Source: Cyanophora paradoxa CCMP329 (lineage: Eukaryota > Plantae > Glaucophyta). Taken from it: 64,000 nucleotides of DNA. Below are positions 5,771 to 43,359 of this stretch, piece after piece. The stretch is from assembly GCA_004431415.1 (NCBI GenBank), contig QPMI01000496.1:434001-498000 (forward strand), read 5' to 3'. The notes under the pieces are model-generated. The model searched no databases. It worked only from the letters and a program-made list of their open reading frames with translations, and was not told where the DNA came from. Every line of letters starts with the position of its first letter. The first letter of the stretch is position 1. A program made the translations under genes and the position numbers.

Positions 5771-8700
5771 ATGAGCTCGAGCGTTCTACGGGCCCTGCCC
5801 TATGTCCCAGCGACGCTGCTCGTTCGGGCCCTCCCACAGCTCCGGCAGCTCAGCGAGGGGACGAAGTCGGCCATCGCGACGGTTTCGGGGGCTGCTCTCT
5901 TTTTGGATGGTGCGTCATGCACGTGTACACGTGCACCCTAGAGCTCTATATGCATATGGCCGAACCGCGCGGCCCGCCCTCGCGACCGCCCTCGCGGCAG
6001 TCGTGCTACGGTACCTCCCATTGCAAGGCTCACCTAGGGGTTCTGCAATCGCGCAGTGAGCGGTTTCAGCGGCCTCGCTCGCAGCCTTGCCCGCTCCGAT
6101 GCCTCAAGCGCCGCCGACCAGGTGCGCACGCTCGTAGTGGATGCATATATGCAGTCGACGTCGACGTCGCGTGTCTGTGTGCCATACATGTACATGTTTT
6201 ACTGACCGCCACGCACCCATTTGCATCTTCAGCTCATGACGACTCTCAACGCGTTCCTCCTCCAGCTTGTGAGCCGCCTGCATGCTCGGGGCGCCGAGAT
6301 CCTCGTCTTCGGTCCGCCTTGCATGCGCATCGTGGCTGCGCGCGAGTGCGCCGTTTCCGACAATATATATTTAGCTAACCCACGTGCACGCCCGCCCTCA
6401 TCCGCAGCCGGAGATGCGGTGAGCTCGAGTGTCGTTTTCGCGGCCCAGAATGCGGTTGCAATTGCTCCGGGCTGCGGGCTGAGGATAGCTGTAGGTCGTG
6501 GCGTTCATCGGTGCAAGCGGCGGCCGGACCCTGCGGGAAGCGACCGCGCTGGCGGTGGAGGCGGCGCGCGACGTCCAGGCCATCGCCTTCGAGCGGGGCG
6601 GGCAACGGCTGACGGCGCACACCGGTAGCGCCCGCTGCGATTGCCGTTAACGTTAACGTTGCACGCGTGCCATCTCCCGCGTTGGAACGCTAATTATAAC
6701 CCGCAACAGGCGTCGGGGCGGGCGACCTGCACATCTACCTCCTCCGAGGGAGTCAGAGGGCCGCCCAAGCGCTCTACGCCGGCGAGCTCATCGCACAAGG
6801 TCAGCGAGTCTCGGTTAAAACGTTGAAGTCGTCATTGGCTGCTTGGGTGCTGACGCGTACGGGCCGCGGGTGGGTCGGGGCGGGTGCAGTCTGCGAGGCT
6901 CAGCGGAACTCGAAGGGAAACGACATCGTCCTCTCTGCTGAGGCCTTCGCCCTTCTCGAACACGGATGCGCCGCAGAGCTCCTTCCGGCCGCCTCCGTCA
7001 AGATCGGCGCCGGCGCCCGCCGGCGCGCTCTCCACCGCCTCCTGCCACCCCCAGAGGGCCGCCCCCCGAGCCGGACGCTGGCGCCGGCGTCGACCGGTGG
7101 AACTCGAAACGCGTGCGCGTGCGGGGCGCCGCTGCGGGCGGAGGCGCGGGAGGCGGAGGCGGAGCTGGCGCCGTTCGCCGAGGAACTGTTCTTGCTCGCC
7201 CCCCGTGCGCGAAACTAAAATTAAAATCCCTATCCCGGCGATCGCAAGCCGCGGACTTTGCTTTCCTGGCCGGCGACTCATGATCATGCAAATGCGAGGC
7301 AGGCGCAGCGACGTCGACGGTGGGCGACGATGCGAAGAGCGCATTTTTCGCGCACGACATCCGCACCGTCTTCGCCGTCTTTGGTTCGTATTTGCCATCG
7401 CCATTGATGGCGGCAATTATTTGAATATTGACTGAATTCTGGTTTCCGTCTTACCCTTCGTTGTCCCAGCCTCCTTCCCCGAATTAGACGATGCGGACTG
7501 GTGCTGGTCGCAGCCGACTGAGACGCCGCCTGATTATGAGGCCGAGGGGGTTACGGGCGGAACCCCGGGCGAATTTGAGGGCGGGCGGTCGACGGGTCGA
7601 TACCGGAGCCCCCGCGCGCGCCACGCAGCACGCTTTGGCCAGGTGCGCCCCGCGACAGCCCTCCGGATTCGCGGGCCCCCGCACGATCGGAATGCGAACG
7701 TTAACGAGGGCGCAGGTCGTACGCTCGGTGCACCGAGTGGCGGAAGACTTCGGCGGCAGCGTCAACAAGATTCTGATAGACGACAAGGCGCGCCCGCGCG
7801 GCCCGGCTCGGAAATTGATACCGGCCCTGCCCCTCTTTCAACGGGCGAGACGGGCCGGGGCGCAGGGGGCGTCGGCGATCATCGGGTTCGGGCTGCCGGG
7901 CGGCTTCGCCCACGAGGACGACGCGGAGCGCGCCGTGCGGGCCGCCCTCGCCCTCCAGGCCTGGTTCCGCGAGAGCGCCGCCCCCTTCGCCTGCGGCGTG
8001 CGCCCCCGCCCGGCCCCGGCCCTAGCGATCGGCCCTCCGCGCATCTCCCAAACGCGAATTAACACGAGGCCTTGCAATTGTCGACAGATTGCGGCGGGGC
8101 GGACCTTCTGCGGCACACTCGGCGCCCCCTGCAGAAAAGAATACGCCCTCGTGCGCCCCCGCGCCCCTGCCACGCCTCGCCGCCCCGCCCCCGCGCCGGC
8201 CGAGACGGGGGCGGGGCGGCAGATCGGGGACTCGGTGGTTCGTCCGCGAAAATCGGATCGAAACCGTCGCCGCGCGAACTGCCGCTGACTGCTAATTATA
8301 ACCGCAGATCCTTGCGGCGCGCCTGATGGGCAAGGCACGGGAGGCGGTCGCGGCTGGCCTGGCCCGGGTCCGGACGGGAGAAGCGGAGCCCAAGGTCGGC
8401 GCCCCGCTGCAGGAGGTCCTCTGCGACCAGAGCATCGTCGCGGGCGTGGCGGGCCGCGGCCGCTCGACGGTGCGCGCGCGCCGCCGCGGGCCCGCGGCCG
8501 TTGCAGCGCTAACCGCCGAACGCTAACCTCACGCACGGCGTGCCACGCAGGGGCTCTCCTTCGAAGCGCTGCCGCCAGCGGGCTTCAAGGGCTTCGCAGA
8601 GGCGGTGCCCGTCTTCCGCCCGGGCAACAGCGCCGCGACGACGTCGATTCGGCGGAGGGACGGCGTGACGTCACGGCGCTCGTCGATCGCCAGCGAGGCG

Positions 8701-11700: not shown

Positions 11701-13629
11701 GTCGACGACCTCGCGCTCTGCGGCCCGCCGCCTTCCCGCCCTCCCCGCCCGCTCCGGCCCGCCGCGAGCGTCGCCCCGGCGCCGTGGGGGCCCGACGCCG
11801 CTCCTCTAGCTCGGTCGCGGCGCCGCGCGGCGCGGAGGAGGCGGCGCGGTGGCGCGCGGTGCGGGCTGGGGCGCTGCGGCACCTCGCCCTGGCGGAGAAT
11901 TTCTCGGGCGCGTTCGAGGCGGCCGGGCAGGCGGCCGAGGCCTGCGTCGCCTGCCTCGGCGAGCCCATGCCCCGCTCCCGCATCGGGCCCGCCGCCGCCC
12001 TCGGTCCGCCCTGCCCCGCCCGGCCCGCGGCCGCCCGCTCGACTCGGACGTAAATTAAAGTCCTCCTGATCATGACCCGCTGCGCATGCAGGAATCTACC
12101 TCCGCGCCCGGGGCGCGGCGCGGCGCGTGGGGAAGGCGGCGCGGCCCGGCTCCCACTGGCTGCACGCCCCGGAGAGCGAGGAGCAGCGCGGGGCGCTGCT
12201 CGACGCCTCCCTCATCCTGGGCTGGACCGGCCTGCTCAAGGTATTTAAAATAAGTGATTTATAGACCTTCGAATTCATATTTGATCGTTCCTCTGTCCTG
12301 TAGGAGGCCTTCGGCGGACGCGGCGGGCTGCCGTGGGTCGCCCTCGCACTTCTTCGCGCCTACGAAATTTCCGGTGTGCATGCACGCTCCGCTTAAGATT
12401 CATTTCTGACCGATTGCTCGTTCAATGCTTGTCCGGACCGGACCCCTTCTAGTCTCATCCCCTGGGCGCGCAGAGGGGACGCCGCGGGAACGCATCGGGG
12501 TCGCCGACTGCCGGTGAGACCGCAGCTCCCCCGGCCCCACCCTCGTCCGATCTCCCTCTCCCTGTGCTGATGCCAAGGCCGCTATCTGCAGCGTCTGGGC
12601 CAATTTCAGCAGCCTGCTGGACGGCATCGGATTTTCCGCGCAGGGCGCCGCTCTGCTCGCGCAGGTCCGACCGTCCCGCCCCCGCCCCCGCCCGTTCGAT
12701 CCGTGTGGTCTGCATCCGGGCGCGCGGCCGACCGTTCGTTGGGGACAGGCGCGGGAGCTGGCGGAGAGGCTGAACAACGACACGGCGAGGGCGGCAGTTG
12801 AGAACCACGCCGGAATGCAGGCCTGCAGGGTGGGAGACTTTGCCGAGGGCGCCCGCCGGTGCGCCCGCCGCGAAACCGATCCCCCGCGCGAAATCTAAAT
12901 TAACCGACGCGCGCAACTGCATTAAAATTGACGAATCTGCGCGAAAACGAAACCTGCGAGCTTCGGAAGCCACTAATCCTATGTCGGCGCGGCCCCGTGC
13001 AGATTCCGGGCGGCGGCAGGGCTGGCGAGCCCGCCGCCGAACAGCCACGAGCTGCTGGCGTCGGCGGCGATGTCGCTGCTGCTCGCCGGCGACCTCGCCG
13101 AGTCGCGCCGCTGCTGCGACGAGGCGGCCCTCTTCGCCTCGCGCTTCGGCGCCGACTCGTACGGAGCCTTCCTCGCCGCCCTCGTCGGCGCCCTCGCCGC
13201 CGCCTTCGCCGGCAGCGACGAGGCCGCCGCCGCCCTCCGCCGGGCCGAGCAGGTGCCCGCCTCGAGCTCGCACGCCCCATTGCTCGTTGCAGTCGCTGAG
13301 CAGGGGCGGCGCGCGGGCAGGGCGTGGGAGAGTACAAGGGAGTGCGGTGGTGGGTCCGGGAGCTGGTGCGCGCCGCGCAGTGCCTGCTTGCCTGGAGGGC
13401 CGGGCACGTGGGGGCCGCCCTCTCCCTCGCCGAGGCCTGCACCGCCACCTGGCGCGCCCAGCGCGCCACCTTCGGCTGGCTCGGCCTCCGTGCGCGCGGA
13501 ACTTCGCTGCGACGCCGCCCCGGCCGCTCTCGATCTGACCGCGCCGCCCTCGCCAGTGTTTCCGGCAGTTCTCGTCGAGTTCAGCATGTGGGCGCGGGCG
13601 AGGGCGCGGGCCGTGTGCGCGATCACGAG
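5771..13629 (+). CDS. Soluble adenylate cyclase (ADCY10)-like protein: two class III cyclase domains + STAND/AAA_16 NTPase + helical/TPR region; 5' portion, interrupted by the viral insertion
   Basis: Exonic cyclase motifs: LPYVP...ALFLD/VSGFSGLA, ILVF/AGDA, FGGSVNKILIDDK/GASAIIGFGLPGGFAHEDDAERAV, FCGTLGAPCRKEYAL/IGDSV/ILAARLM. NTPase motifs: Walker A EAEAGMGKT, Walker B LLLEDVHWMD, G/VPLFLVEL. Downstream STAND-type motifs: IVLARVDQLP, FSHGLL/RDAVY. Start codon tentative. Confidence 0.8.
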
Positions 13630-13870
13630 AAAAAATGGTAAAGTGGGGCTACTGTCACCACATCGATTAATTCCCAATATATCAAACAATCCCAATCAAA
13701 ATCCTCTCGATTCTCAGTCTTTACCAATCAGAATTCAACAAATTCTCAGTCTCTCAATCACAATTAATCGAAGTTATATCTTAAATTAATTAATCGAAGT
13801 TATATCTTAAATCTTATTTATCGAAGTTATATCATAATCTCGATTAATTATATTTAATCGAAGTTATATC
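13630..13870 (+). repeat. Left terminal inverted repeat (241 bp) with 4 direct copies of ATCGAAGTTATATC
   Basis: Begins AAAAAATGGTAAAGTGGGG and matches the reverse complement of 25212-25452 with no mismatch seen. Motif copies at 13767, 13793, 13820 and 13857. Confidence 0.95.
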
Positions 13871-13957
13871 CTTTTTATCCGCCGTGTCTCCCATGAATTA
13901 CAAAATTTGATTGCTTTTTTAACATGCTTAAAAGTTATTAAACACAAACATATACCA

Positions 13958-14143
13958 ATGGCTTGGGAAAAGCGCCAAAGAGATGTTAAGGAATGTGGAT
14001 GTCACACAGTATGGGAAGTCCATGATTTCTTTAATGATGAGAGGGAAATGTATCAAGTTTATTGTGAGAAACACAAGCCAATAACAAATAAAAAACAAAC
14101 CATTCACAGTAACCACACAAAACAAAACGTAAAATCTCAGTAA
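13958..14143 (+). CDS. Small viral protein (61 aa), possibly zinc-binding
   Basis: MAWEKRQRDVKECGCHTVW...YCEKH has CxCH and CxxH pairs. ATG is in an A-rich context, downstream of AAAATTTGA and TTAAAAG motifs. Confidence 0.5.
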   Translation: MAWEKRQRDVKECGCHTVWEVHDFFNDEREMYQVYCEKHKPITNKKQTIHSNHTKQNVKSQ

Positions 14144-14565
14144 GCCTCAGTAACAATTTAAAACCTCTAATTTTTTACTGTATTTTTTGAACGGTTTTTT
14201 ACTGTATTTTTTACACTAGAAACAACGATAGAAAAGACAATAAAAACAATAGAATTGTAATTGCTTTTTAATCGTATATACGTCACTATATCAATATAGT
14301 ATATACGATATATATCATAGAAAATCGATTTATGGTCATACCTATAACATATCTATTTGTGTATATGTGATATATATATATATATGACGTCATAATGACG
14401 ATGCATATGTATATAATATATATGACATACCACGTGACTCGGGAGATTATGACGATCACGGCGATGTGTATATTGTCATGATGTATATGTATATATATGT
14501 GTGACGCAATCTGATTGGCTCACTGACTTTCAATGTATCCCCCTTCAACTTCTCCCCAGGTTTCG

Positions 14566-14649
14566 ATGTGAGATAAAATGTGATATTAAATGTGAGATAA
14601 AATGTGATATTATATGTGAGATTCTATGTGAGATATAATGTGATATAAA
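14566..14649 (+). repeat. Tandem 12-bp repeat, 7 copies of ATGTGA(G/T)ATWHW
   Basis: Units: ATGTGAGATAAA, ATGTGATATTAA, ATGTGAGATAAA, ATGTGATATTAT, ATGTGAGATTCT, ATGTGAGATATA, ATGTGATATAAA. Confidence 0.9.
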
Positions 14650-14718
14650 AGTTATAAATTAAATGTTTACTTTGCTCAATTTCTATTGGTCCATGCCACA
14701 GAGTAGTGATTTTTCATT

Positions 14719-14790
14719 AAATGCGCCATAAATTGCGCCATAAAATGCACCATAAAATGCGCCATAAAATGCGCCATAAAATGCGCCATG
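14719..14790 (+). repeat. Tandem 12-bp repeat, 6 copies of AAATGCGCCATA
   Basis: Six near-identical units read directly from the sequence. Confidence 0.9.
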
Positions 14791-15035
14791 AAAACCCGGG
14801 GAATAAACCGTAGTAGGGTATATGATCTCACAAGGTTCAAGTTTCGCTCACGTTTCACCGAAGTTTCGGTAAATCGATTATCGGCATCTTCAAACGCTTG
14901 TATCTCACCACCAGATGGTCAACTCGCAACGTTTTGCATAGCGTTTTGAAGCGCTTGTTAAGCTCTACGCAACTACGTAATCATCGTATTATTTCAAGCT
15001 ACCTTGCCATACAATATTTCTCACAAATCGTCCTT

Positions 15036-15793
15036 TCACACACTGATTGTGGTCATTTCTCGTTGGATCCGAGCCATCTGACCCCTTTTAATTGCTTTTC
15101 TCTTCACAAACTTCTTAAAGCCCTTTATATCATCATCAGTTAGTACTGCTCTATCAGTATAGGTCTTGATATCATAACCTTGCAGGCTAGCTATGACAGT
15201 TTGGTAATTATAACCCATAGTCTATGCAATTCCTTGTAGGTCTTCTTATCCATTCCACCATTGTACTCATCAAAGGCGCAATTGAATTCCTTTTCATTCC
15301 CAAGTATATTGAAAAATACAACGAACTCCACATTACGACGAATGGTAGTAGAAATTGAGCATAAACGCTGAACATTAAATATCACAGAAATTGAATAATG
15401 GCGGCCGCTCGTGACCAATTTAGATAACACAGCCGAATTATGCATATCCAAATTGGAACCTATCATGTCATCGAGTATGATTACTAAGTTATTTCGTTTC
15501 TCATTGTTCTCGATTCGTTTCTTTTGCATACTGATCAATCTCAAAACAATGTTATCATCCCATTCCTCATAGATGTTATCTGGATGGGTGATGTCATTGA
15601 ATTGCCCAGTAAAAGCTGTTGAACTAAATATTACGATCTGATCGATCTTGTCACGAAGCTCGTAAAGTAAGTATTTTGTAAACATTGTCTTACCTGTATT
15701 GGAGCGACCAACATTTAAAATTCTCGTTGGGATTCGAACTGTCTTACTCGGATCGAACTCCGGAATATCATCTAAGTTTACTGTGTTATCCAT
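15036..15793 (-). CDS. A32-like (FtsK/HerA) genome-packaging ATPase, with one apparent 1-nt frameshift near 15220
   Basis: Walker A GRSNTGKT, Walker B VIILDD, SGRHYSISVIFNVQ and IRRN motifs in ORF 15191-15793. The C-terminus continues as TMGYNYQTVIA... in ORF 15036-15218. Confidence 0.9.
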
Positions 15794-15874
15794 TACAGTA
15801 ATAACATAAAAAACAAAATAAACTGCTCACCTACTTAATTTCTGAGCTTCCTACTCTAACGAAAGAAAAGAACT

Positions 15875-17100
15875 TTAGAAGTTCGAGACTTTCAGGGTAG
15901 AGATGTTGTAGCCATTGAGGACCATAACATTGTGTCGCAGGGCATAGATATCAACCTGAACAGGAGCAGCATCAGTGCATCCCGAAACAGTGAGATCCAT
16001 GTAACTCGAGCTGCTGTTGAAGAAATCCTGGTAACCCATAACCGAGTTCCGAAGCGAATCTTTTCCGGACTTGGAAAGAACAATTCCATAAACATTTCCA
16101 GACTCGAATCCGTAGGTGGTATTGCCCACAGTAACACCCTTGTAATGAGAGGGAATGTGATTGACAGCAGAGAGGAAACCGGAAATGGGTTTGTTAGAGA
16201 TATCAAGGGAGCGATTGTTGTGGAAGATCTGGAACTGATCGATTTTAACATCCGAAACATGACCACAGAAATCAGAATGAGTGTAGGTGTTGAGTTTGTT
16301 CACCTCTCGAACAGTCATGAGAATCGAATGAACCAGACCGGAAACATTAGCAAGTGTAACCTCGACCGATTCACCAGCATCAGCAGTTTTAAGCGCTCGG
16401 GTCTTCTTGTGGATGACCTCTGTGATCGGGATGCGAATGCCACCTTGTTCGTTTGCCATCTTTAGGAGTGTCTCAGCCTCAGCCGAAGCGATGTTTACGA
16501 ATTGGCAGATCAGGGAGCAATCCGCAAAGGTAACAGATCCACCGGCAGGAACTTTGACTATCCAGCATCACGGAAATCCACCTCAATCGTTGGCATATCC
16601 GCCAGCGTACATAATGGAAAGTAAGCATCATCCCAGAAAGCAGCGGGGATTTTAACAATGTATTCCATAGCCTCATCTGTGCTTTCACGATCAAGTTCTT
16701 TGAAGTAACCGAGAGAAGCATACATGCTGCCCATAGTAGCATGATCATTATCGATTAGGGCGTTTACAGTGATCCAATCACCAGGGATGATATACTTGAA
16801 ACCACCATGAACGAAGCGGACCTCATTAATAAAGGAAGAACCACCATTGGGGAGGGTGCAGGCTACCTCACCACCAGTGACAATCTTGAAATAGAGCGAA
16901 ACACCAGCAAGGAGTTGCTTGCGAGGTAGATCAAAGTAAGCGGTATTCTTAAAGCCAAAAGTATTGCCTCGGGGGCGAACTTGCTCGAGGAATGGTTTGT
17001 ACTTGGGGTTGGTTCCGATTTGGAGACCAGGGGATAGATAAATTTGATCGGAACCGGGAGTTACGAGGAGTTCCTTAAGGGTAGTTCCAGTGAGTGCCAT
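15875..17100 (-). CDS. Major capsid protein (double jelly roll, about 408 aa), split by a 1-nt frameshift near 16560
   Basis: N-half has DQIYL...FGFKNTAYFDLPRKQLL...FINEVRF...IPAAFW...FPLCTL...IEVDF. C-half ends VDIYALRHNVMVLNG. Adding one base at GATGCTGG^ATAGTC joins ORFs 16558-17100 and 15875-16459 through an open linker IVKVPAGGSVTFADCSLICQFVNI. Flanked by the ATPase and penton genes. Confidence 0.8.
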
Positions 17101-17152
17101 CTCTTATGTTTAAAATACCAAAAGAAATTTTTAAAATGCTTTATTAAACAGA

Positions 17153-18052
17153 ATGACGCGTCATTACCTTAATATTGATTCTCGGGATCGGGATGATGGA
17201 ACCCCAACAAACTTCACTTACAAAATTCCCCATGCAATCCAAAATGTGAGGGCATGCAGAGTGACCAATTTCGAGATGTTCAATAACATTTACAATCTCA
17301 GCGAGAATGGAAGTTTGATTACAGGAACCTATGATGCTGGGGATGTAATTAAAACTAAGAATAACACTATTTCAAAAGGGACATATACTTCGGATAGTTT
17401 GGTGAATCTTCTAAATGCAAAACTTGCTTCACAAGTGTATGGTGCAGCAGGAACTACCTATACTCGCCATTTTCATGTAACCTATGATCCTGTTACCATG
17501 TTTCTAAGGTTCATGTGCGATGCAACATTTACCCTCTCCTTTGGAAGTCGGATCTTAGCGAACTTCCTTGGTTTCCCAGATCGCAGACCTGACAGTTCTG
17601 AAAATGGTTATGCTTCTGCCCTGCTCGATTCGCCAGTAACAGTTGGAGCAAATACTTATAATTACTACATTGACAGTGTTATACCACTCGATCTTCTGTT
17701 CAATTCTTACATCCTTCTTCATGTTGACCCACTCAAAGGCAACTATGTAAGCAAGAACACCAGCGATGATAAAGCCCTTGCAAAAATTGAGATTGACCAA
17801 ACGGTAGGCAGTCTACTAAAATACGATTCATCGAATAATTCCATGATATTGCATGAGCAAAATGGTTTGGTGGAAGTTGAAACGCTAAAAGTTCGTCTCA
17901 CATACTGGAATGGTGTTGAAACTGATATTACTACAGATTGGTCGATGACTCTCGAACTGATTACTGAAGATGATAAAGATCTGACGAAGAAAGCATTGAA
18001 GAATGTCATAAAAGAGTTGGAGGGACTCTACCTGCCGTTCTCACGGTCATAG
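17153..18052 (+). CDS. Minor capsid (penton) protein, single jelly roll
   Basis: LNIDSRDR...NF.Y......NV, NIYNL, KGTYT, LANFLGF, YILLHVD, ALAKI and LKVRLTYWNG...DWSMTLEL, the motif pattern of PLV/virophage/NCLDV pentons. Divergent from the MCP gene across 52 bp. Confidence 0.85.
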   Translation: MTRHYLNIDSRDRDDGTPTNFTYKIPHAIQNVRACRVTNFEMFNNIYNLSENGSLITGTYDAGDVIKTKNNTISKGTYTSDSLVNLLNAKLASQVYGAAGTTYTRHFHVTYDPVTMFLRFMCDATFTLSFGSRILANFLGFPDRRPDSSENGYASALLDSPVTVGANTYNYYIDSVIPLDLLFNSYILLHVDPLKGNYVSKNTSDDKALAKIEIDQTVGSLLKYDSSNNSMILHEQNGLVEVETLKVRLTYWNGVETDITTDWSMTLELITEDDKDLTKKALKNVIKELEGLYLPFSRS

Positions 18053-18088
18053 GAAATACTGTAGAATAAATTTGTCTCGATATTACAA

Positions 18089-18873
18089 ATGGCTCGCAAG
18101 ACTCAGCCCAAGAATTTCTTAGCCAAACCAGTTGAGCAAGCAGAACCAGAACGGAAACAGTTTAAGAAATCGAAAGGAACCGCAGCATACGGAACTGGTG
18201 ATCTCGATAAAAATGTCCACCAGACCATGAATGCTCACACAATTGCGCTTACTTCAAACTCAAATGATGATAATGCCCTGGTTGACCAAGTCCCACTGAA
18301 CCGCATGCCCGGAGCGAAACGAGGAATCAAGAAAGGGCAGTTCAAATCATCCACGAAGGACAAGGTTGCCTCATCATCGACACTGCTGAAACTGCTTGAT
18401 GGTGGTGAGAGACTCTACTCAACCTATTCCGAGAAAGACCATCGCAACCGCTACTTTATTCGTTCAACCACTGGTGGACTGAAATCTGTGACATATCAGT
18501 ATGCTAAGAGTCTTGTTGATGGTATTGCAGCAGAGACCAAAAACGAAAACAAGATCAAGGAACAGCCAATCACAAAGGAGAAGGTTGAGAAGAAACCAGA
18601 GGTAACCATGAAGTAATCCCTGAACCTGTTCATGTCGCAAAAGACTCACCAACAGAACTGATTGCAAAGACAATCGATTACCAAGACTCCAACAAAACGG
18701 ATTTGCCGGTTCTCAATAAATCGATCCTCCGGGTTGCCACTTCGCAGGCTGATCCAGTCAACTCGATTCCAAATGCTGCCCAATGGTCTCAGGGTTTGCA
18801 AAGCTTGGTATTAGACCCGGTTATCGCCGTTAAGGATCATTTCAGAATTTTTAAAAATCTTGAACATTGTTAG
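18089..18873 (+). CDS. Lys-rich viral protein of unknown function (candidate core/structural protein); probably extends past a 1-nt frameshift near 18607
   Basis: 175-aa ORF to 18616. An overlapping frame HEVIPEPVHVAKD...FKNLEHC* stays open to 18873. Confidence 0.6.
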
Positions 18874-19183
18874 CGCTACGTAACCAATCTTATCCCGTAG
18901 GCTCAAAACTTCTTCATTTTTATGGAGGCGTTGTAGAGCGAAGTGAAAATATCCATAGGTAAATCACTTTAATCACCTGTTCTACCGGGTTCAGTGGTAG
19001 AAACTTGCAGCCGACAAGTGAGCCTATTTGGTTTCGGTGGCTTTATCATTTTTCCAGCATCTTCTTTCGTACTGGATGCTCTGCAATCGGACCAAAATTT
19101 GACAGGAGTTTAATCGCTATATACAGACAGAAAAACTACTTAAAGATTTCTTAACATATATTAAGAGAGTAGAAAAGGACAAA

Positions 19184-19441
19184 ATGCCAATCAGTGAGGC
19201 TCAGAAGCGTGCTACTTATCGTTATCGTAAAAGTGAAAAAGGTCAGGAATATTTAAAAAAGTATAATGCGAAATTCGCAAAGCAAATGCGTGATTTATAC
19301 CATACTGATGAGTGTTACAGAGCCATGAGAATCGTTGAGAGTTCCCAGCGTCTCTATGCTTCCAATGCAGTCTGCTTTGTGAAGTATCTCTATGGTGTCC
19401 CGTATTCTAACCGTGGTCGCAAATCGAAATATCTCTGTTAA
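19184..19441 (+). CDS. Small basic viral protein (85 aa), putative DNA-binding
   Basis: N-terminus MPISEAQKRATYRYRK resembles the S.AQKRA..(K/R)Y start of small viral and phage proteins. Good ATG context. Confidence 0.65.
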   Translation: MPISEAQKRATYRYRKSEKGQEYLKKYNAKFAKQMRDLYHTDECYRAMRIVESSQRLYASNAVCFVKYLYGVPYSNRGRKSKYLC

Positions 19442-19682
19442 TTGTTTTTCTCAGCGCGATCTGCTCTGAGAAACCCGTGGGAACCGCGCTGGAACCACAA
19501 ATAAAATCATTCTGTTATTTTTAGAGTTCGATGATCGAGCCAACCCTTTGTTATTTTTATGAATGCCCTCGACTAAATTTATTTTGTTGGAGACTTTTGG
19601 TTTTGTCGGTAAAATTTGACGCGAGTATAAAAGTATTTAAAGAAAACTTTTGTAGGTATATATTAATAGAGTGAACAAAGAA

Positions 19683-22600
19683 ATGCCTCGACCAAGTAAT
19701 CGGATTTCGAAGAATTTGCAGGATGAGATTCTTGGTTACTACATGCAAGCAAAAGTAGAAGACAAATTGACCCGAGAGCAGGATATCTATTTCTTGAGAG
19801 AATTTACTTTCAAAGCAATTAGAATTCCAAAGTTGATTGATATCAGAGATACACTGAGAGGTATCGTAGAGCCTCGTTTGTATCGCAAGCAGGAGAAGAA
19901 GGAAGCCAGAGCGGAGAGGGCTGCAAAGAATGTTGCAAAACGGCAAGCAAAGACCAAAGAAGTGCAGAAATACAAAAGAAATCAGCAGAAGAAGGCCAAG
20001 AAGCAAGAGAGGGTTCAAAAATGGAAGTCAAAGCAGGAAGCCAACCAGGTTCAGGTAATGAATGCCATGAATCACCTAGTCGAAGAGATTACATGGAAAA
20101 ACGCTAAGAAAAACCTAATTAACACAATCCATCGGTTTATCACTGAGAAGATAGGATGGGATGATCTCCACAGAAGACTTCAAGAGGCTTTGGACAGACA
20201 CAATGGAATTAAGTTCCAGTTCAAAGTGAAGGCCAATTACAAATACAAGGAGAAGCAAAATGGAAGGTGGACAGGAGAGTACCAATACGCAACCAGATAT
20301 CCAAGCTCAATGCAGTTTTACCTAGTTCTTCCAGCAAATGACCTAACGGATATCGTAAGGCAAGCTGTGGATGATCTGCATGAAATCATGACAGCCATTG
20401 AGTATGCAGAGGTTCACAATATTCTCGAAGTAACCCTACAAATTCTATCTTACACACCTCTGACAGGAAGTTCTTACATTCCTCTTCCAGAAGAGATTGA
20501 AAAGAGAAAGGCTGTTATCAATCCTAAGAATGAAGACCAAGAATGTTTCCGACATGCTGTTAAGATTGGCTTGCATCACAATGATGTCATTCGAAACCAC
20601 AGATCTGAATTGAAACGATACAGTAAGTGGGACAAGGAATTTGATTGGAGTCGCTTTGAGTTCCCAGTCAAGAATGATTCTAGAGTTTACGATCTAGCTT
20701 CAAAGATGATTGGTAGACCTATCAATGTCTACTTCCTTGATAACAAGAAACGAGTCTTCCCTATCCATGTGAACAAGAACCCAGCAGAGCAGCACAAGAC
20801 CATTGACCTTTTGATGTGGAGTGATGGGGAGAACACCCATTATGGCTTCATTTCAAGTCTATCGAGACTCATTCCAAGCTCACACAAGGAAACGAAGTAT
20901 TTCTGTAAATGCTGCTTGAAGGGATTTACAGGTCAAAGGATCCTCGATAATCACATTAGACTAAGCAGATGCTATGAACGACCAACAGCAACTATTGATG
21001 TGATGCCTGAAGCAGGAAGCTGTATTATGTGGGATCCACAGAGAAATGCAGACAAAACAGTTTGGCATCCGATGTTTGCAGTTGCTGATTTCGAGTGTCT
21101 CCTGAAATCTGTTGAAAGTGTTGTGACTCGTGTTGATGAGAAAGGTGTTAAATACGATTCAAATAATAACGAGATCAACACCGAAATTTACCAAAAGCAC
21201 ATCCCTTGCGCTTACAAAATCATGATCATGCATAAGGACAAGATCCTAAGAGAAGTCCTCTACCAGAAACAAGATCCAAACAACGATGATGAGGTAATCA
21301 ATCATTTCATGACAACTCTCAAAAATATGGAGGCTGAGTTGCTTGAAAAGGTGAGAGAGGTCGAGCCAATAAAGATGGATCGATATGACAAAATGAATTT
21401 CAAAGAAGCCACATGCTGCTACATTTGCGAGGATCAATTCGTTAAATATGGAGAAGAGGGTAAGGTTTTCATTACAAAGAAAGTCAGGGATCATGATCAT
21501 ACCACAGGTAAATATCTTGGGGCTGCCTGTGATAAATGCAACCTGAGAAGAAGGGTTAACCCTAAAATTCCTGTTATATTCCACAATCTGAAAGGGTATG
21601 ATGGACACTACATTCTAAAAGCTCTCGGTGAGCATGCAGACCCAGGAAAAGAGATCCGCTGTATCGCTGAGAATTTCGAGAAGTTCAAGTGTTTCGACTT
21701 TAACAGCTACAAATTCGTTGATTCCCTGAATTTCATGCAAGAAAGTCTTGACAAACTTGCTAGTAATCTCGGTCACAGAGACAACTATAAATACACCAAT
21801 GAATGGTGTGACCAGCATACAATTACGGAGACCCAAAGAGAACTCCTGATGAGGAAGGGATTCTTCCCTTATGATTACTTGGATTGCCTTGATAGACTCA
21901 GCGAAACTAAACTTCCCAGCAAAGAGGCTTTCTTCTCAAAGCTTAATGATCGTGAAATTAGCGACAGTGACTACAAGCATTGTCAGAAGGTGTGGGATGC
22001 ATTTGATTGCAAGACACTTGGAGATTACATGAAGATCTACCTTGAAACTGATGTGTTCCTTCTCGCTGATGTGTTTGGTCACAATTTCCGACAGAGATGC
22101 TATAAAGATTATGGACTTGATCCTATCCATTTCATTTCAGCTCCACACCTCAGTTGGAATGCTATGTTGAAACTTACGAAGGTTGTTCTCGAAAACATTG
22201 ATGATGATGAAATGTATCGTATGTTCGAGCTTGGAATTCGTGGTGGAATATCGATGATAGCTACGCGGAATGCTCAGGCTAACAATCCATACATGAAGAA
22301 CTTTGATCCAACAAAGCCAATAAAATACATCATCACATGGGATGCCAACAATTTGTATGGATTTGCTATGTGTCAAAAGTTACCTATTGGTGATTTTGAA
22401 TGGATCGATAACGTTGAAGACTTTGATTACATGAAATTTGATGCTGATGGTGAAACTGGGGCATTATTGGAGGTTGATTTGGAGTATCCAGATCATTTGC
22501 ATGATGAGCATAGCGATTACCCACTAGCACCTGAATCTATGGTAGTAACTGAGGACATGTTATCACCTTCCCAACTTGAAATGCTTGGTGAAGAAAAGCT

Positions 22601-23681
22601 TCCTGGAAACCGAAAGTTGGTACCCAATCTGAACAACAAACACAACTACGTTCTTCACATCAAGAATCTGCAATACTATGTATCAAAGGGTATGATTGTG
22701 AAGAAGATCCATCGAGGGATTGAATTCAAACAATCGGCTTGGTTGAAACCTTACATTGATTTCAATACTGAGAAAAGGAAGCAGGCACAAAATGATTTCG
22801 ATAAGGATTTCTACAAGCTCATGAATAATTCGGTGTATGGAAAAACCATGGAGAATGTCCGGAATCGTAGCAACATCAAACTCTGCCACAACCCAGAGAA
22901 GCAGGCGAAACTGAATGCAAACCCTCTACTGAAAAAGGTTAAGATCATCACCGAGAACCTGACAGCAGTTGAAATGTATCGTGGAACTATTCTTCTCGAT
23001 AAACCAATCTATGTTGGTCAGGCGATCCTTGATTTATCAAAACTTGTCATGTATCAGTTCCACTACGATTACATTCGCAAGAAGTATGGATCGAAAGCCA
23101 AACTCCTCATGACTGACACAGATTCGCTGTATTACATTATTGAGACCGAGGATCTATACAAGGATATGAACTCTGACTCTCATTTGTTCGATCAATCGGA
23201 ATACAGTCCTTCTCACATTTGCTACAATCCTCAAAATAAAAAGGTTCCTGGTTTATTCAAGGATGATGCCGGTGATTTGGTTGTAACTGACTTTGCAGGA
23301 TACAAACCAAAGGCCTACTCTTATTTGAAGGATTTGAATGTCAAGGCTCTTGGTTCGGAAGAAGATGTGAAAAAGGTGATTGCTAAAAGGTTGAAGGATA
23401 GTGGGAAAAGTTCAGAAGAAGATGTAAAGAAAGATACTGTAAAGAGGTTGAAGGGAATCCAGAGATGTGTAGTTAAAAACAAATTAGAGTATAAGCATTT
23501 CTATGATACTGTCATGGGGCAAGAGCAGGATCCTGTTACAGTTAGAGGAATTCGTTCAAAGAACCACGAGGTATCAACACTTGAAATGAAAAAGAGGGCA
23601 TTCAATGCGCTTGATACCAAGAGGTATCTTTGCGAGGATAAGGTGAATACTCTTGCAATTGGGCATTACAGAACTCGCTAA
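19683..23681 (+). CDS. polB: Protein-primed family B DNA polymerase polyprotein (1332 aa): putative terminal protein, OTU-like protease domain, C2H2 finger, exonuclease with Endo VII-like insert, polymerase
   Basis: Exo I ADFEC, Exo II FHNLKGYDGH, Exo III YLETDV; Pol A DANNLYG, Pol B KLMNNSVYGK, Pol C TDTDS. Also NPKNEDQECF...THY, CKCCLKGF.....LDNH, and CYIC...VRDHDHTTGKYLGAACDKCN. Frame is uninterrupted. Confidence 0.97.
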   Translation: MPRPSNRISKNLQDEILGYYMQAKVEDKLTREQDIYFLREFTFKAIRIPKLIDIRDTLRGIVEPRLYRKQEKKEARAERAAKNVAKRQAKTKEVQKYKRNQQKKAKKQERVQKWKSKQEANQVQVMNAMNHLVEEITWKNAKKNLINTIHRFITEKIGWDDLHRRLQEALDRHNGIKFQFKVKANYKYKEKQNGRWTGEYQYATRYPSSMQFYLVLPANDLTDIVRQAVDDLHEIMTAIEYAEVHNILEVTLQILSYTPLTGSSYIPLPEEIEKRKAVINPKNEDQECFRHAVKIGLHHNDVIRNHRSELKRYSKWDKEFDWSRFEFPVKNDSRVYDLASKMIGRPINVYFLDNKKRVFPIHVNKNPAEQHKTIDLLMWSDGENTHYGFISSLSRLIPSSHKETKYFCKCCLKGFTGQRILDNHIRLSRCYERPTATIDVMPEAGSCIMWDPQRNADKTVWHPMFAVADFECLLKSVESVVTRVDEKGVKYDSNNNEINTEIYQKHIPCAYKIMIMHKDKILREVLYQKQDPNNDDEVINHFMTTLKNMEAELLEKVREVEPIKMDRYDKMNFKEATCCYICEDQFVKYGEEGKVFITKKVRDHDHTTGKYLGAACDKCNLRRRVNPKIPVIFHNLKGYDGHYILKALGEHADPGKEIRCIAENFEKFKCFDFNSYKFVDSLNFMQESLDKLASNLGHRDNYKYTNEWCDQHTITETQRELLMRKGFFPYDYLDCLDRLSETKLPSKEAFFSKLNDREISDSDYKHCQKVWDAFDCKTLGDYMKIYLETDVFLLADVFGHNFRQRCYKDYGLDPIHFISAPHLSWNAMLKLTKVVLENIDDDEMYRMFELGIRGGISMIATRNAQANNPYMKNFDPTKPIKYIITWDANNLYGFAMCQKLPIGDFEWIDNVEDFDYMKFDADGETGALLEVDLEYPDHLHDEHSDYPLAPESMVVTEDMLSPSQLEMLGEEKLPGNRKLVPNLNNKHNYVLHIKNLQYYVSKGMIVKKIHRGIEFKQSAWLKPYIDFNTEKRKQAQNDFDKDFYKLMNNSVYGKTMENVRNRSNIKLCHNPEKQAKLNANPLLKKVKIITENLTAVEMYRGTILLDKPIYVGQAILDLSKLVMYQFHYDYIRKKYGSKAKLLMTDTDSLYYIIETEDLYKDMNSDSHLFDQSEYSPSHICYNPQNKKVPGLFKDDAGDLVVTDFAGYKPKAYSYLKDLNVKALGSEEDVKKVIAKRLKDSGKSSEEDVKKDTVKRLKGIQRCVVKNKLEYKHFYDTVMGQEQDPVTVRGIRSKNHEVSTLEMKKRAFNALDTKRYLCEDKVNTLAIGHYRTR

Positions 23682-23713
23682 GGTTAGGTTAAAGAAATTG
23701 ATTGCTTATTGTA

Positions 23714-24794
23714 ATGGAGCAGGTATTGAGCTATACAAAATATAGACAAAAGCTAATCAATGAGGGTGTAAAGTTTGATGAGGATGAATTGAAAAAGAGA
23801 TTTAAAAACAGTGAATTGAATCAGATTTTCAAGAAGCCTACCAAGCCGAAATCGTTTCTTAGAATCGTAGCCCACCCAATTCTTTTCAGGTTGATATTAT
23901 ATATTTCAAGGATTATAAGACAGCAAACTATGGTGTGGATCGCATGCTAGTATTCGTAGATATTTTGAGTAGGAAGGGTTTTATATTTCCTTTCAAAATG
24001 GTCACTGGGAAGGAGAAGAACGATGAGAAGAAGATTGAGATTCTAAACAAATTTAAAAGCCAAGCTGGAACAGTCCAAGCTCTTTCCGGAGATAAGGAGT
24101 TTTCAGGGAATATTTACAAGAAATGGTGTGAGGATAATGGTGTGGTTTTATACACAGACATTGCCAAAGATGACCACATTACAGTTGGGGATAAACTCGG
24201 AATAGTTGATAGGTTCACAAGAACAATCAAGCAGTATTTAAGGAAGGCTATAAAGTCAACTGGGAACTCGAAGTGGACTGAATTTTATGAAGATGTGCTG
24301 GCGACTTACAATAACAGTCCACACAGTTCACTGAAGAATGATTCTCCAAATGCTGTGTATGGAAATAAAGAAAAGGAAACGTATGTTTACTTTCGTGATT
24401 CACTGCATAATAAGCATGTGAGAGAGGGATTACCAAAAGTGCAAGAAGGAGATTATGTGAGGGCTGTGAATCCAAAGGGAGTTTTCGAGAAAGAGGGTGC
24501 AAGGTTCAGTGAGAAAGTGTTTAAGGTGGCTGGTAAAGTTCAGAATAAATACAAACTTTTGGAGGATAATGAAGGTGAAACAGTTCGTGAAGTTCGAAGA
24601 AAATTCAAAATAAATGAGTTGCAAAAAGTAGATAAAGAGGCTGTCGTAAAGATACCAACCAAAAGAGAGTTGAGAGGGTAAAGAAAACCACAAATGTGAA
24701 TCGAGTGGTTTCCCAAAAAGAAGGAATAAAACCAAATCGTAAGAAAGTAGTTAGAAAGAGATATAATTTGAGAAGTGGATTAACTAAACGTTAA
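23714..24794 (+). CDS. Retroviral-type (rve) integrase with two apparent 1-nt frameshifts (near 23877 and 24664)
   Basis: Repaired frame reads HPNSFQVDII...MLVFVDILSRK...SGDKEF...IVDRFTRTIK...YNNSPHSSL...P, then an SH3-like GDYVR...FEK...FSEKVFKV and a basic tail ending RYNLRSGLTKR*. That stop overlaps the stop of the convergent gene in TTAA at 24791-24794. Consistent with the 6-bp TSD. Confidence 0.9.
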
Positions 24795-25153
24795 GCTCTA
24801 ATATCAGATCCATCATCTGATTCAATAAATCTTGTAACTGGTTTGAATCTTTGAAATACATCTTTGTGGTGAATTCCTTTTACATACCACCCTTTGTTTA
24901 CAGGATCCCATCTGAGTCCCATACACTTTGCATCGAAATTATCTTTAAATTGAACTTTGCAGTAGATCTTTTCATTTCTGTATTTAATTTCTTTTTCATT
25001 GATCGTTTGGAATTCTTTCAGTAAATCACTATTTGCATCTTCTGTATACCAAAGTTTCATTTCATAATCCCATTTTGCTCCTTTCTCTTTTGCGATTTTT
25101 CGATCATTGTAATCACAATCAAAGTAAAACTTCTTAATTGTATTTGTCTCCAT
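24791..25153 (-). CDS. Tandem DUF5710-like domain protein (120 aa)
   Basis: Two copies of the Y..V.F.D...AK..G.RWD...K.WY pattern: FYFDCDYNDRKIAKEKGAKWDYEMKLWY and IYCKVQFKDNFDAKCMGLRWDPVNKGWY. Confidence 0.8.
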   Translation of the reverse strand: METNTIKKFYFDCDYNDRKIAKEKGAKWDYEMKLWYTEDANSDLLKEFQTINEKEIKYRNEKIYCKVQFKDNFDAKCMGLRWDPVNKGWYVKGIHHKDVFQRFKPVTRFIESDDGSDIRA

Positions 25154-25211
25154 TTTATTCAGATTATCATATTATTTTTATATGAAACAATCAATGAGGA
25201 TATAACAATCA

Positions 25212-25452
25212 GATATAACTTCGATTAAATATAATTAATCGAGATTATGATATAACTTCGATAAATAAGATTTAAGATATAACTTCGATTAATTAATTTA
25301 AGATATAACTTCGATTAATTGTGATTGAGAGACTGAGAATTTGTTGAATTCTGATTGGTAAAGACTGAGAATCGAGAGGATTTTGATTGGGATTGTTTGA
25401 TATATTGGGAATTAATCGATGTGGTGACAGTAGCCCCACTTTACCATTTTTT
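25212..25452 (-). repeat. Right terminal inverted repeat (241 bp)
   Basis: Ends CCCCACTTTACCATTTTTT; reverse complement of 13630-13870. Confidence 0.95.
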
Positions 25453-26000
25453 CACGAGCGAAGAGGGGCGCCGCTGGGGCCCCGGCCGCGGGCCGATCCT
25501 CTGCTGGCGGCGGGCGCCGCGGCGGCCCTCCGGCTCCGGCTCCGTGGCCCCGACAGAAAGCAGCGAGCTTGACCTGGCGGGAGGCAGCGCCGCCGGCGCC
25601 GGCGCCGGCGCCGGCTGGCCCCGCCGGAGGAGGCGGCGGGGGCGCTGCGGCGAGCGGAGCGACTGGCGGAGGGCGTGCAGGCGCTGCTGGAGGAGACGTG
25701 CCGGAAGCGGCTGCCGGCCCTCGCCCCTTTGTCGAGCTCGCGCGGGCCGAGCGGCCGGGCCTGGCCCCGCGCCGCCGCCTCGCCCGCCTCCGCGCCGCCG
25801 CGGACGGGTTCGCGCGCCTCGGCCTGCGCCCCTTCGAGATCGCGGCGCGCCTCCGCCTGGCGCGGGCCGAGCCCGACCCGGCGGCCGCCTCCGCGGCCCT
25901 CGCGGCGGCCGGCCGCCTCGCCTCGGAGACGGGCGTGCGGGTGCCGGCTTTGGGGCGCCCCGCCCCGCTCCCGGGCGAGTTCGAGGCGACCTGGGTCTGA
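25453..26000 (+). CDS. 3' end of the same cyclase-STAND-TPR gene, separated from its 5' part by the viral insertion
   Basis: Removing the element and one TSD restores an open frame AVCAIT-SEEGRRWGPG. The terminal frame ...ELARAERPGL...GEFEATWV* ends at 26000. Contains apparent 1-nt indels. Confidence 0.65.
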
Positions 26001-36945: not shown

Positions 36946-37331
36946 CGGCGAGCAGCTGCAGCTCCTTTGGCACTCCCGCGGCCGGCAAGCAAGTTGAAGC
37001 AACTACGCCGCTGCTGCTGGCACTGCCTGGCAGTCCACTGGGCCAGATGAGACTGGATCTGGGGATTCTAGATCTGGGCAGACATCGACTGGGCTACGCG
37101 CACATGTGCATGCATGATGCATCATGGCATGTGTAGTAGTCATTGTGTACACTGTACATGTCATGATATCGATATACTATGATGATATGCGGGCAGCAGC
37201 CGCTGCCAGGCGCTGACTCACACAGTGTCAGAGTCAGTGAGCGGTGCCACACAGGCCCACACTGCCACCGTGCCAGCGCCGCGCCGCCTGCGCCGGCGCC
37301 GGCCCAGCCTGGCAGCGCCGCCAAATTAATA

Positions 37332-39845: not shown

Positions 39846-40465
39846 CACAGCCAGCACAGCAATCACTCCTAAACAGCCCTGTCGGACCGGCGGCCGCACA
39901 TCTCGGCCGTCCCTCCTATTGCACGGAGCCGACCCAACTCTGCAGCACCATGGCTAGCTGCAGTGGAGCGTGATCCCGCGGCAGCAACTGTGAAGCAGTT
40001 CTGCCTCGTTGGCTGGCCGGAGCAAACCCTGTTCCCAGCGATCCTCCCGGAATCGGCCCCGGGCCCCGATTCACGCTTGAATCTGGTGCCTTACTGCCGT
40101 GCCGGTACGTGGATTCACGTCCGGGCCCGCCCGCCACGCTCGCATCCAGCGCGCGCTGGCTATCCCGGGGGCCCACCGTCAGTCCGCGGCCGCCGGCTTG
40201 CCTATACACTCTATAAGCGTGTATTGAGACCCGCCGCGCGATTCCTCCGGATCCCTGACCATTCCCTGCGCGCATGATCCGGGAGCTCCTCGGCGCTCGA
40301 ACCGGACGCCGCCGCCGCGCCACGCCGGCGGAGCTCGCGCAGGAACGCCCCGGCCTGCTGGCGCTCGCGCTGCAGGCCCACCGCACCGTCGGGGCTTGGA
40401 TCGTGCCTTACGCGTGATCCACCGACGGACGGTGCCCGGCCGCCCGCGCGGCTCGGGGTGGCGAC

Positions 40466-42645: not shown

Positions 42646-43359
42646 TCTACAGGCCCCGCGGCCGCACTCCGTCGGAGTGCCCGCTGCGCATGCAGCCTCG
42701 CGATCGATCGCGATCGCAGAGTGTTTTTGTTTTTTGTTTGTCTGTGGTCGATTTTAGTCAATTCAATGGTTGACTCGACCTAAAAACAAAACAAAAACAA
42801 AAAACAACAAACGTCCCGGCCGGACCGGCGGACCCGCGAGGGCGCGATTCCGCGCGAACCCGCGGGCCGCGGGCCCGCGGCGCCGGCGGCCGCGGCCGCG
42901 CGCGCGCGCGCGCCGCGCCGGCGGCCCGGCGCGCGGTCTCCGAGGCTCGCTAGTAGTCGCTACCGGTAGGCTGCGGCGGTAGCTACCTGGCTGGTGCTTC
43001 CGGGCGCTTCCGCGCTCAGAATCCGCTGCCGCAGGCCTATCGCTAGGCCCGCAGCGCGCATCAGCAGCGCCGCGGCGCATCGCCGCATGCCATGCCCGGC
43101 TGCACGTAAGCTAGTCCCCAGTACTACTAGTAGTACTGCAGCTCCCGAGCGCGTGCGAGTCAGCCCGGCCTCAGCCTCCGCCGCGGCGCCCGACACCGCA
43201 GCCGCTGAGCTGCAGCTGCAACTGCCAGGCTGGCGCTTCCGCTGCCGCAGTGCTGTCGCTGGCGCGTGGCGCTGCGGACTACAGCCCTCGCTGGCGCTCC
43301 AGATCTCGCTGCGAGTCGGCCCGCTGGCGACCTTCCGCGCATCCGCGCCGCGCCGTCGC

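Follow-up and report, generated by a model that had tools for sequence, protein, structure and literature searches.

A likely recent endogenous Polinton-like virus of unusually small size, with pPolB and an rve integrase, in Cyanophora paradoxa

The window of 64,000 nucleotides analyzed here (Cyanophora paradoxa CCMP329, contig QPMI01000496.1, positions 434,001 to 498,000) contains an integrated, TIR-bounded element of 11,823 bp at positions 13630-25452. The evidence supports its identification as an endogenous Polinton-like virus (PLV) with pPolB, rve integrase, A32 ATPase, MCP and penton, and without adenain, as had been predicted. Its capsid family has already been catalogued; the element belongs to a known kind, within which it is unusually small and likely recent. 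Its features, in window positions, are:

13624-13629, no strand: left copy of the 6-bp target-site duplication (TSD), CACGAG
13630-13870, plus strand: left TIR, 241 bp, starting with six A and containing four internal repeats of 25-27 bp
13958-14143, plus strand: 61-aa ORF, Cys/His-rich, no family match, accessory
14566-14793, no strand: two tandem arrays of 12-bp units (7.1 and 6.6 copies) in a non-coding stretch
15036-15793, minus strand: A32-type packaging ATPase, ~252 aa (Pfam Pox_A32, E 6e-16)
15875-17100, minus strand: MCP, ~408 aa, predicted double jelly-roll, one-base break near 16561
17153-18052, plus strand: penton (minor capsid protein), 299 aa, divergent from the MCP across a 52-bp gap
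18089-18833, plus strand: 248-aa basic protein, breaks near 18605 and 18778
19184-19441, plus strand: 85-aa basic ORF, no family match, accessory
19683-23681, plus strand: pPolB, 1332 aa, single open frame (Pfam DNA_pol_B_2, E 3e-17)
23714-24794, plus strand: rve-type integrase, ~360 aa (NCBIfam IS481-like, E 3e-5), breaks near 23870 and 24658
24791-25153, minus strand: 120-aa protein with two DUF5710 domains (Pfam, E 3e-15), accessory
25212-25452, minus strand: right TIR, 241 bp, identical to the left TIR
25453-25458, no strand: right copy of the 6-bp TSD, CACGAG

The AT-rich island of the original prediction was recovered at the same size, with a GC content of 38.8% (39% rounded) against 72.7% and 60.9% in the 2-kb flanks. 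The TIRs, described as identical, were perfect over exactly 241 bp, and the TSD was likewise perfect. The TIR end occurred 2 times in the window against 0 expected from shuffles, and the left host-virus junction was found in contigs of all three DNA runs with 0 differences. An Rfam search gave 0 hits. The identical TIRs, the intact TSD and a pPolB-integrase arm that is nearly invariant in the reads uphold the claim of recent integration. The CpG observed/expected ratio was 0.55 in pPolB and 1.15 in host DNA; methylation of repeats and viral genes has been reported in C. paradoxa.

The 4-kb polB is intact, in agreement with the original prediction, and its predicted domain order is terminal protein, vOTU (C288, H386), exonuclease and palm. 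The vOTU was assigned from its motif and its position against the published domain order; C288 and H386 are kept in all 24 homologs, and the exonuclease and palm motifs are conserved too. A scan of viral contigs for close relatives of pPolB found none, and a PDB sequence search with this protein gave nothing useful. The integrase carries the acidic triad D61-D127-D166, whose third residue is E in 16 of 19 homologs, and tblastn detected a relative in 17 of 30 viral loci (best E 1e-40).

In the capsid module, both MCP halves match one 456-aa protein, P0002, with a published HHpred match of 98.47% to an iridovirus MCP (Bellas 2023, PMC10120064). Table S2 of that paper holds a near-identical MCP, which runs uninterrupted across the break position and has an HHpred match of 97.19% to an ascovirus MCP. 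The MCP of the element differs from a C. paradoxa MCP at about 9 of 298 residues (by-eye count), and its sole MCP-length match among 1.84 billion representatives was a C. paradoxa protein. The capsid appears to be lineage-restricted. The MCP is predicted to be a double jelly-roll, a call resting on the published match to the ascovirus MCP because AlphaFold gave folds of low pLDDT (31 for the penton alone, 36 for P0002 with a three-row alignment) and the MCP matched no other PLV MCP when profiles were compared with profiles (probability 0.5%). PDB sequence searches with the MCP alignment and with a 12-row MCP alignment gave nothing useful, a mixed MCP profile reached E 0.064 on the MCP, and a scan with the MCP N-half, which detects close relatives only, found none in viral or metagenome contigs. 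Another match, P0001 (5280 aa, 23 matching stretches), was set aside as a repeat match.

A profile of 16 viral-contig homologs identified the penton with E 1e-10 (36 bits; 200 shuffles gave at most 7.2 bits). The penton family alignment matched P1v1 of PDB 8h2i (E 5e-6) and the 6qi5 penton (E 0.063), and a word-based search found no penton relative. The 248-aa basic protein had no family match and no usable match in the protein atlas; our guess is a DNA-binding core or cement protein.

The predicted lack of adenain was borne out. The adenain profile, built from 20 proteases (leave-one-out E 2.5e-11 or better for 20/20), found proteases in 20 of 30 related viral contigs used as positive control, and detected neither adenain nor vUlp1 in 441 six-frame fragments of the element (best E 0.31). 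Since the profile with this positive control is silent on the element, the absence holds; the 248-aa ORF has zero cysteines and is therefore not a cysteine protease. On the other hand, "protease-less" would be too strong a label, because pPolB keeps the predicted vOTU Cys-His dyad. The further claim that adenain loss marks a new minimal lineage is not supported: according to published papers most PLVs are without adenain, and of the major PLV groups Gosseviruses alone count a cysteine protease among their core genes (Bellas and Sommaruga 2026); the 10 of 30 viral contigs with the same pPolB class and no protease in the part examined are scattered over the pPolB tree.

Among sister copies in the DNA runs the pPolB-integrase arm was homogeneous, while the capsid arm to which it is joined was polymorphic and present in greater number. 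The pPolB contigs (3.2 kb) reached depths of 437 and 306 and had 4 and 6 differences, compared with depths of 79 and 13 for the left-flank contig; these depths do not translate into copy numbers, and coverage of the GC-rich flank may be too low. Over the capsid arm depth was 950-2750 at single sites, with ~300 variant sites reported over the stretch, and here the window often disagrees with the majority contigs (one X9 contig has 15 differing sites over 293 bp). Near 19.9 kb the depth dropped, and a loose end lies at 19903. Capsid-related pieces were deep in three of six possible RNA runs and shallow in two others, which weakly suggests that sister copies have strongly transcribed capsid genes.

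As a side observation, pPolB was mostly uncovered in the possible RNA runs, which carries no evidential weight.

The best explanation, which we consider probable, is an integrated, TIR-bounded PLV of C. paradoxa, likely recent and likely intact, that would follow these steps. The rve integrase likely inserted the element and made the 6-bp duplication, and the element could be excised as a linear genome. Since it has no RNA polymerase or transcription factor gene of its own, the host would transcribe it in the nucleus, where it may normally be silenced by CpG methylation. The vOTU dyad of the pPolB precursor may cut off the terminal-protein domain, and replication after reactivation would be protein-primed, starting at the A-run ends; slide-back priming is known from phi29. 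MCP and penton would form the shell that the A32 ATPase fills, the 248-aa protein perhaps serving as core, and the capsid would mature without adenain. Copies may swap arms, so that one capsid arm would travel with different replicase arms.

With the same anatomy the element could lead a virophage-like life, silent until a giant virus infects, with its transcription and replication then taking place within the virus factory or next to it. Gezel-14T and mavirus are silent in this way until giant-virus infection, giant-virus insertions have been reported in C. paradoxa, and the AT-rich element, lying in a GC-rich host, has no transcription machinery genes; the uneven depth of capsid pieces among the RNA runs would fit conditional induction. 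However, no giant-virus late promoter motif was seen by eye upstream of the nine starts, literature searches found no helper, and MCP expression without a detectable giant virus has been reported for other PLVs, so that we regard helper dependence as possible but doubtful. A self-synthesising transposon spreading in the nucleus, with capsid genes carried along and no virions, would agree with the lack of MCP relatives in the close-relative scans of viral and metagenome contigs and with classical Polintons, whose virions have not been seen. This is improbable, given that MCP, penton and ATPase are full length on read-through and that, within the family, the capsid arm outnumbers the rest.

Beyond the integrated PLV itself, we suggest only tentatively that glaucophytes carry their own, currently active minimal virus lineage, with six core genes (ATPase, MCP, penton, basic core protein, pPolB and integrase; ~11 kb), a unique capsid, swapping of replicase arms within one genome and massive helper-free capsid induction in some cultures. 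If this were true, the virus would rank with the smallest eukaryotic double jelly-roll viruses whose own enzymes serve both replication and integration, and a standard laboratory alga would offer an inducible virus. Because the family is young, multicopy and found in an alga that can be cultivated, it becomes possible to test whether rve + pPolB virions exist, whether adenain is dispensable and whether the vOTU releases the terminal protein.

The original prediction described nine ORFs in a complete element. Nine genes are present (A32 ATPase, MCP, penton, 248-aa basic protein, pPolB, rve integrase and three small ORFs), but only once breaks are read through; as assembled, four of the nine are frameshifted and the sequence itself is not intact. 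Six one-base breaks were found, one each in the ATPase (near 15213) and MCP genes and two each in the 248-aa ORF and the integrase gene. Short-read contigs have one extra base at each break, in the ATPase at full depth in all three DNA runs, and at 18605 and 18778 in only part of the depth. All seven one-base shortfalls sit in C/G runs of 2-3 bases, which ~10% of sites adjoin, and the host flank shows the same error type (2 gaps in 215 bp, 0 substitutions). Since every break falls in a short C/G run and is filled by one base in the contigs, the frameshifts are likely assembly errors; Bellas 2023 (PMC10120064) describes such artefacts in multicopy EVEs. Programmed -1 frameshifting and introns were ruled out as causes of the split genes, since the DNA contigs carry the extra base.

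Contigs lose rare variants and their majority sequence may differ from the copy in the window, so that the absence of breaks in exactly this copy is not demonstrable from them. The window copy might thus be truly degenerate, its frameshifts host-fixed mutations in a young fossil mobilised at most in trans, as the six breaks across four genes, the D in place of E in the integrase and the invisibility to contigs of a single-copy allele among many copies would allow. We consider this unlikely: every break is one base short in a short C/G run, read-through creates no in-frame stop, the host flank has the same type of error, and 0-6 substitutions per 3.2 kb of pPolB together with identical TIRs leave too little time for six indels. 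Frameshifts within multicopy viral inserts of long-read assemblies are often errors and call for caution.

The original prediction also took Mavericks as the baseline for comparison, which was wrong, since the MCP misses the Maverick-type profile and is already catalogued. Judged by its sequence, the element is a PLV and not a Maverick. A true Maverick/Polinton (Polintoviricetes) that lost adenain and shrank is already disfavoured and very improbable: the combination of pPolB, rve and 6-bp TSD would fit it, as would a pPolB 38-42% identical to relatives that include mollusc proteins (120 matches listed), but the Maverick-type profile PF21738 matches neither MCP half nor P0002 while scoring 142-566 bits on five Maverick-type MCPs from viral contigs, the ATPase lies on a long branch whose nearest neighbours are protease-less contigs (a placement not firmly supported and in no starred group), pPolB groups with three metagenomic proteins apart from the mollusc ones, and replicase arms are known to move between classes.

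The element shares with Mavericks/Polintons/adintoviruses and Gosseviruses a TP-vOTU-exo-palm pPolB, rve integrase, TIRs, 6-bp TSD, A32 ATPase and penton, and differs from them in lacking adenain/vUlp1, in an MCP not of the PF21738 type and in its algal host; it has ~12 kb against ~20 kb in Mavericks/Polintons. The Aquintoviricetes PLVs (TsV-N1, Gezel-14T, Dino group) are likewise endogenous in algae with a variable replication arm, and a reduced morphogenetic module without protease is typical of them. At 11.8 kb the element lies below the PLV ranges quoted for them (14-40 kb and 15-30 kb) and marks a low end of PLV genome size; a published PLV filter accepted 6-80 kb, and we do not claim it as the smallest. 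As for virophages (Virophaviricetes), the adenain profile found no protease in the element, a Sputnik-type penton profile (two sequences) found no match in it, and the C. paradoxa MCP counts lie outside the virophage columns in the tables of Bellas 2023 (PMC10120064).

Similar in gene content are PLVs from IMG/VR with pPolB and rve (L010, L014, L016, L019, L005, L011), which have the same pPolB, rve, ATPase and penton families and, like the element, no adenain in the part examined. The best ATPase matches were L014, L016 and L019/L020 (23-26% identity). These contigs are larger (14.9-21.6 kb), their MCP candidates do not match the element MCP, and several have GIY-YIG/HNH nucleases, fibers or methylases, which the element lacks.

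Tables S2 and S4 of Bellas et al. 2023 (PMC10120064) list 366 MCP hits for C. paradoxa in clusters of 272 and 94, the larger without a group name by column count, and endogenous PLVs are estimated there at 7.3% of the genome. The element MCP is nearly identical to row 24 of Table S2 and related to 4-5 more rows. The text examined of that paper gives MCP counts for this alga and no genome anatomy, and Dataset S1 may map the element; for a capsid family of which mostly counts were known, the element described here supplies the complete anatomy. Elsewhere in the literature searched, a glaucophyte PLV or virus was only mentioned in passing, and supplementary data may include the element. In a preprint on mosaic polisuviruses (Barth et al. 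2026), a pPolB + DDE integrase unit reassorts with capsid modules, as is proposed here, and one example is an EVE labelled with the same host species. There the swap shows as tandem elements, whereas here it is seen as a step in depth and divergence inside the pPolB 5' end within one family.

Between the 248-aa and 85-aa ORFs (18834-19183), no open frame above ~60 aa was found on either strand after read-through. The accessory ORFs vary among sister copies: the 61-aa ORF (joints 13891-14091 and 13898-14160) and the 85-aa ORF (joint 19175-19436) are omitted or substituted in some copies, and the 120-aa DUF5710 protein in one sister subfamily (joints 24635-25048 and 25084-25153). The tandem arrays are absent or substituted in many copies (joint 14473-14858).

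The 11,823-bp element at 13630-25452 is a real, young-looking and compact Polinton-like virus (PLV), as the original prediction held, but the novelty claimed for it was not upheld, since its capsid family is already catalogued and most PLVs lack adenain. The GC content is 38.8%, against 72.7% and 60.9% in the flanks, the terminal inverted repeats (TIRs) are identical across exactly 241 bp, and CACGAG lies immediately beyond each end as a target-site duplication, confirming the predicted AT-rich island, identical repeats and perfect 6-bp duplication. The TIR end sequence occurred twice in the window and in none of 100 shuffles. Contigs from three DNA runs (X1, X5 and X9) spanned the left host-virus junction with no differences, which excludes an assembly chimera on that side. 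The inner TIR halves (13756-13870 and 25212-25326) each contain four 25-27-bp units around TCGAAGTTATATC, which may be candidate protein-binding sites of an origin or of the integrase.

The ATPase matched Pox_A32 (E 6e-16), and the protein-primed DNA polymerase B (pPolB) matched DNA_pol_B_2, with 38-42% identity to the best 120 of 5281 matches. The pPolB retains the exonuclease and palm motifs, and all 24 homologs aligned share C288 and H386; by motif and position these two residues are the predicted dyad of the vOTU cysteine protease that Krupovic et al. (2024) described between the terminal-protein and exonuclease domains. Relatives of the integrase were found in 17 of 30 viral loci (best E 1e-40); its triad is D-D-D, the third residue in 19 homologs being E in 16, N in two and D in one. 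The N variants are the integrases at 5484-6524 of viral contig L009 and 13323-14447 of L011. The penton scored 36 bits against a profile of 16 one-per-contig homologs and at most 7.2 bits across 200 shuffles, and its family alignment matched a solved penton-type chain. When the N-terminal half of the major capsid protein (MCP) was compared with 1.84 billion representatives, two proteins were found, one set aside as a repeat match and the other a 456-aa C. paradoxa protein (P0002) that aligns with both MCP halves, in order. One C. paradoxa MCP in Table S2 of Bellas 2023 (PMC10120064) and the MCP of the element disagree at about 9 of 298 residues (by eye); the tabulated protein is continuous across the break and matches an ascovirus MCP in HHpred (97.19%). 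Table S4 gives 366 MCP hits in the C. paradoxa genome, and these matches make C. paradoxa the likely host. The MCP and penton start codons point apart across 52 AT-rich bases (17101-17152), a likely bidirectional promoter.

The most likely mechanism, proposed from the anatomy, is that the integrase would make the insertion and host CpG methylation would silence it; such methylation of C. paradoxa repeats and viral genes has been reported, and CpG is depleted in pPolB. On release, excision would be followed by vOTU self-processing of pPolB, protein-primed copying would start at the A-run ends, and the A32 ATPase would package the genome into a shell of MCP and penton, without a proteolytic maturation step. 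Dependence on a giant virus is less likely.

The predicted gene set and pPolB stood, but the nine ORFs were not all intact: four genes (ATPase, MCP, integrase and the 18089 ORF) are interrupted in the assembled window, in every case continuing downstream in the -1 frame. Contigs carried an extra base at 15213 (full depth, all three DNA runs), at 16561/16562 (full or most depth), at 18605 and 18778 (a fraction of the depth, matching loose ends) and at 19088, and possible RNA runs did so at 23870 and 24658; at 18946 the contigs were one base shorter than the window. All seven window shortfalls lie within C or G runs of 2-3 bases, a context offered by roughly 10% of sites (a rough null), and a host-flank contig showed two gaps and no substitutions over 215 bp. 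Since false frameshifts of this kind were reported in multicopy EVEs by Bellas et al. 2023 (PMC10120064), these results together make assembly errors the likely cause, although the contigs leave room for a single-copy allele. Read-through gave 252 (ATPase), 408 (MCP), 248 (ORF at 18089) and 360 aa (integrase) with no stop, and it is improbable that this copy is dead. About 29 additional bases in contigs between 23525 and 23717 probably fall between pPolB and the integrase, since pPolB remains alignable up to its last conserved residues.

pPolB was recovered as one 3.2-kb contig with four (X1) or six (X9) differences. Its depth in the three DNA runs was 437, 265-292 and 306, where the left-flank contig had 79, 11 and 13. 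On the only roughly valid assumption that depth reflects copy number, this suggests between several and about 25 near-identical copies. Single sites of the capsid arm reached three to six times the pPolB depth, with many variants. Depth and divergence step near 19.9 kb, within the pPolB 5' end. High-depth contigs retain the TIR, but four parts are absent from them or exchanged for other sequence (61-aa ORF, 12-bp arrays, 85-aa ORF and DUF5710 gene), suggesting six core genes and a putative exchange of replicase arms, as proposed in general by Barth et al. (2026). A capsid-free transposon life is improbable.

A diverged sister subfamily at 23074-25236, present in DNA (X1, depth 540), X16 and X17, shares pPolB 3'-end patches and the TIR, most of the integrase/DUF5710 region being skipped or replaced. 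At 14968-17469, short pieces 85-95% like ATPase, MCP and penton reached summed depths of thousands in three possible RNA runs of one year (X15, X16 and X17); they derive from sister copies, not the copy at 13630-25452. In two other runs, X20 and X21, such pieces did not exceed about 70, with 0-2 for the left host flank. Conditional induction of the capsid genes is only weakly hinted at, the RNA status of the runs being guessed and contig depth a poor measure. Near-identical integrase/DUF5710 contigs (23717-25201) in possible RNA runs had low depth (differences: X16, 1 over 405 bp; X17, 1 over 299; X15, 13 over 1283), as did pPolB pieces in X20 (no differences in 213 bp).

Of 30 viral contigs with the pPolB class of the element, 20 carry an adenain-like protein. 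In leave-one-out tests a profile built from these recovered all 20 with E values no higher than 2.5e-11, yet the element, searched as 441 six-frame fragments, gave no match (best E 0.31). A single unassigned ORF has a size that would suit a protease, and it contains no cysteine. The absence of adenain is real, as predicted, but a minimal new lineage is not supported by it. Among major PLV groups the protease is a core gene only in Gosseviruses according to Bellas and Sommaruga (2026), a reduced module is described as typical of Aquintoviricetes by Bulzu et al. (2025) and likewise in a 2026 Halocafeteria preprint. In the pPolB tree built here (39 rows; FastTree; long branches flagged), protease presence or absence switches four or more times. 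Ten of the 30 contigs showed no protease in the available part, several being fragments and one (L010) nearly whole at 14.9 kb. Lack of adenain is therefore ordinary, and the rule for PLVs. Elsewhere among these contigs, adenain-like proteases are fused to an rve integrase (L015, 2740-4248, 503 aa) or to an N-terminal part labelled phospholipase-like by resemblance (L023, 10220-11251), and L029 combines a Polinton-type pPolB, a Sputnik-type penton and a divergent protease.

The MCP did not match the Maverick-type Pfam profile, which strongly matched five viral-contig MCPs, nor any other MCP group built in the analysis. The ATPase formed a long branch nearest protease-less contigs, without a starred group, and pPolB clustered with three metagenomic proteins, away from two named mollusc proteins. 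Replication and integration are thus Polinton-like, whereas membership of Polintoviricetes fails because adenain is absent and the MCP profile missed; a shrunken Maverick is very improbable. The element is classed as a PLV whose capsid is lineage-restricted. Starrett et al. (2021) had already seen adintovirus-like relatives of pPolB and integrase in C. paradoxa. In the literature searched, other than Bellas 2023 Dataset S1 and preprint supplements, no published description of the element's anatomy was found, and a size below quoted ranges, an isolated capsid and a cultivable host make it more than routine.

In the host surroundings, translations indicated a minus-strand gene with many short exons at 31400-37000, which we take to encode tetratricopeptide-like repeats and an apparent NTPase region. 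Large GC-rich satellite arrays occupy 40465-42608 (160-bp units) and 43356-48674 (139-bp units).
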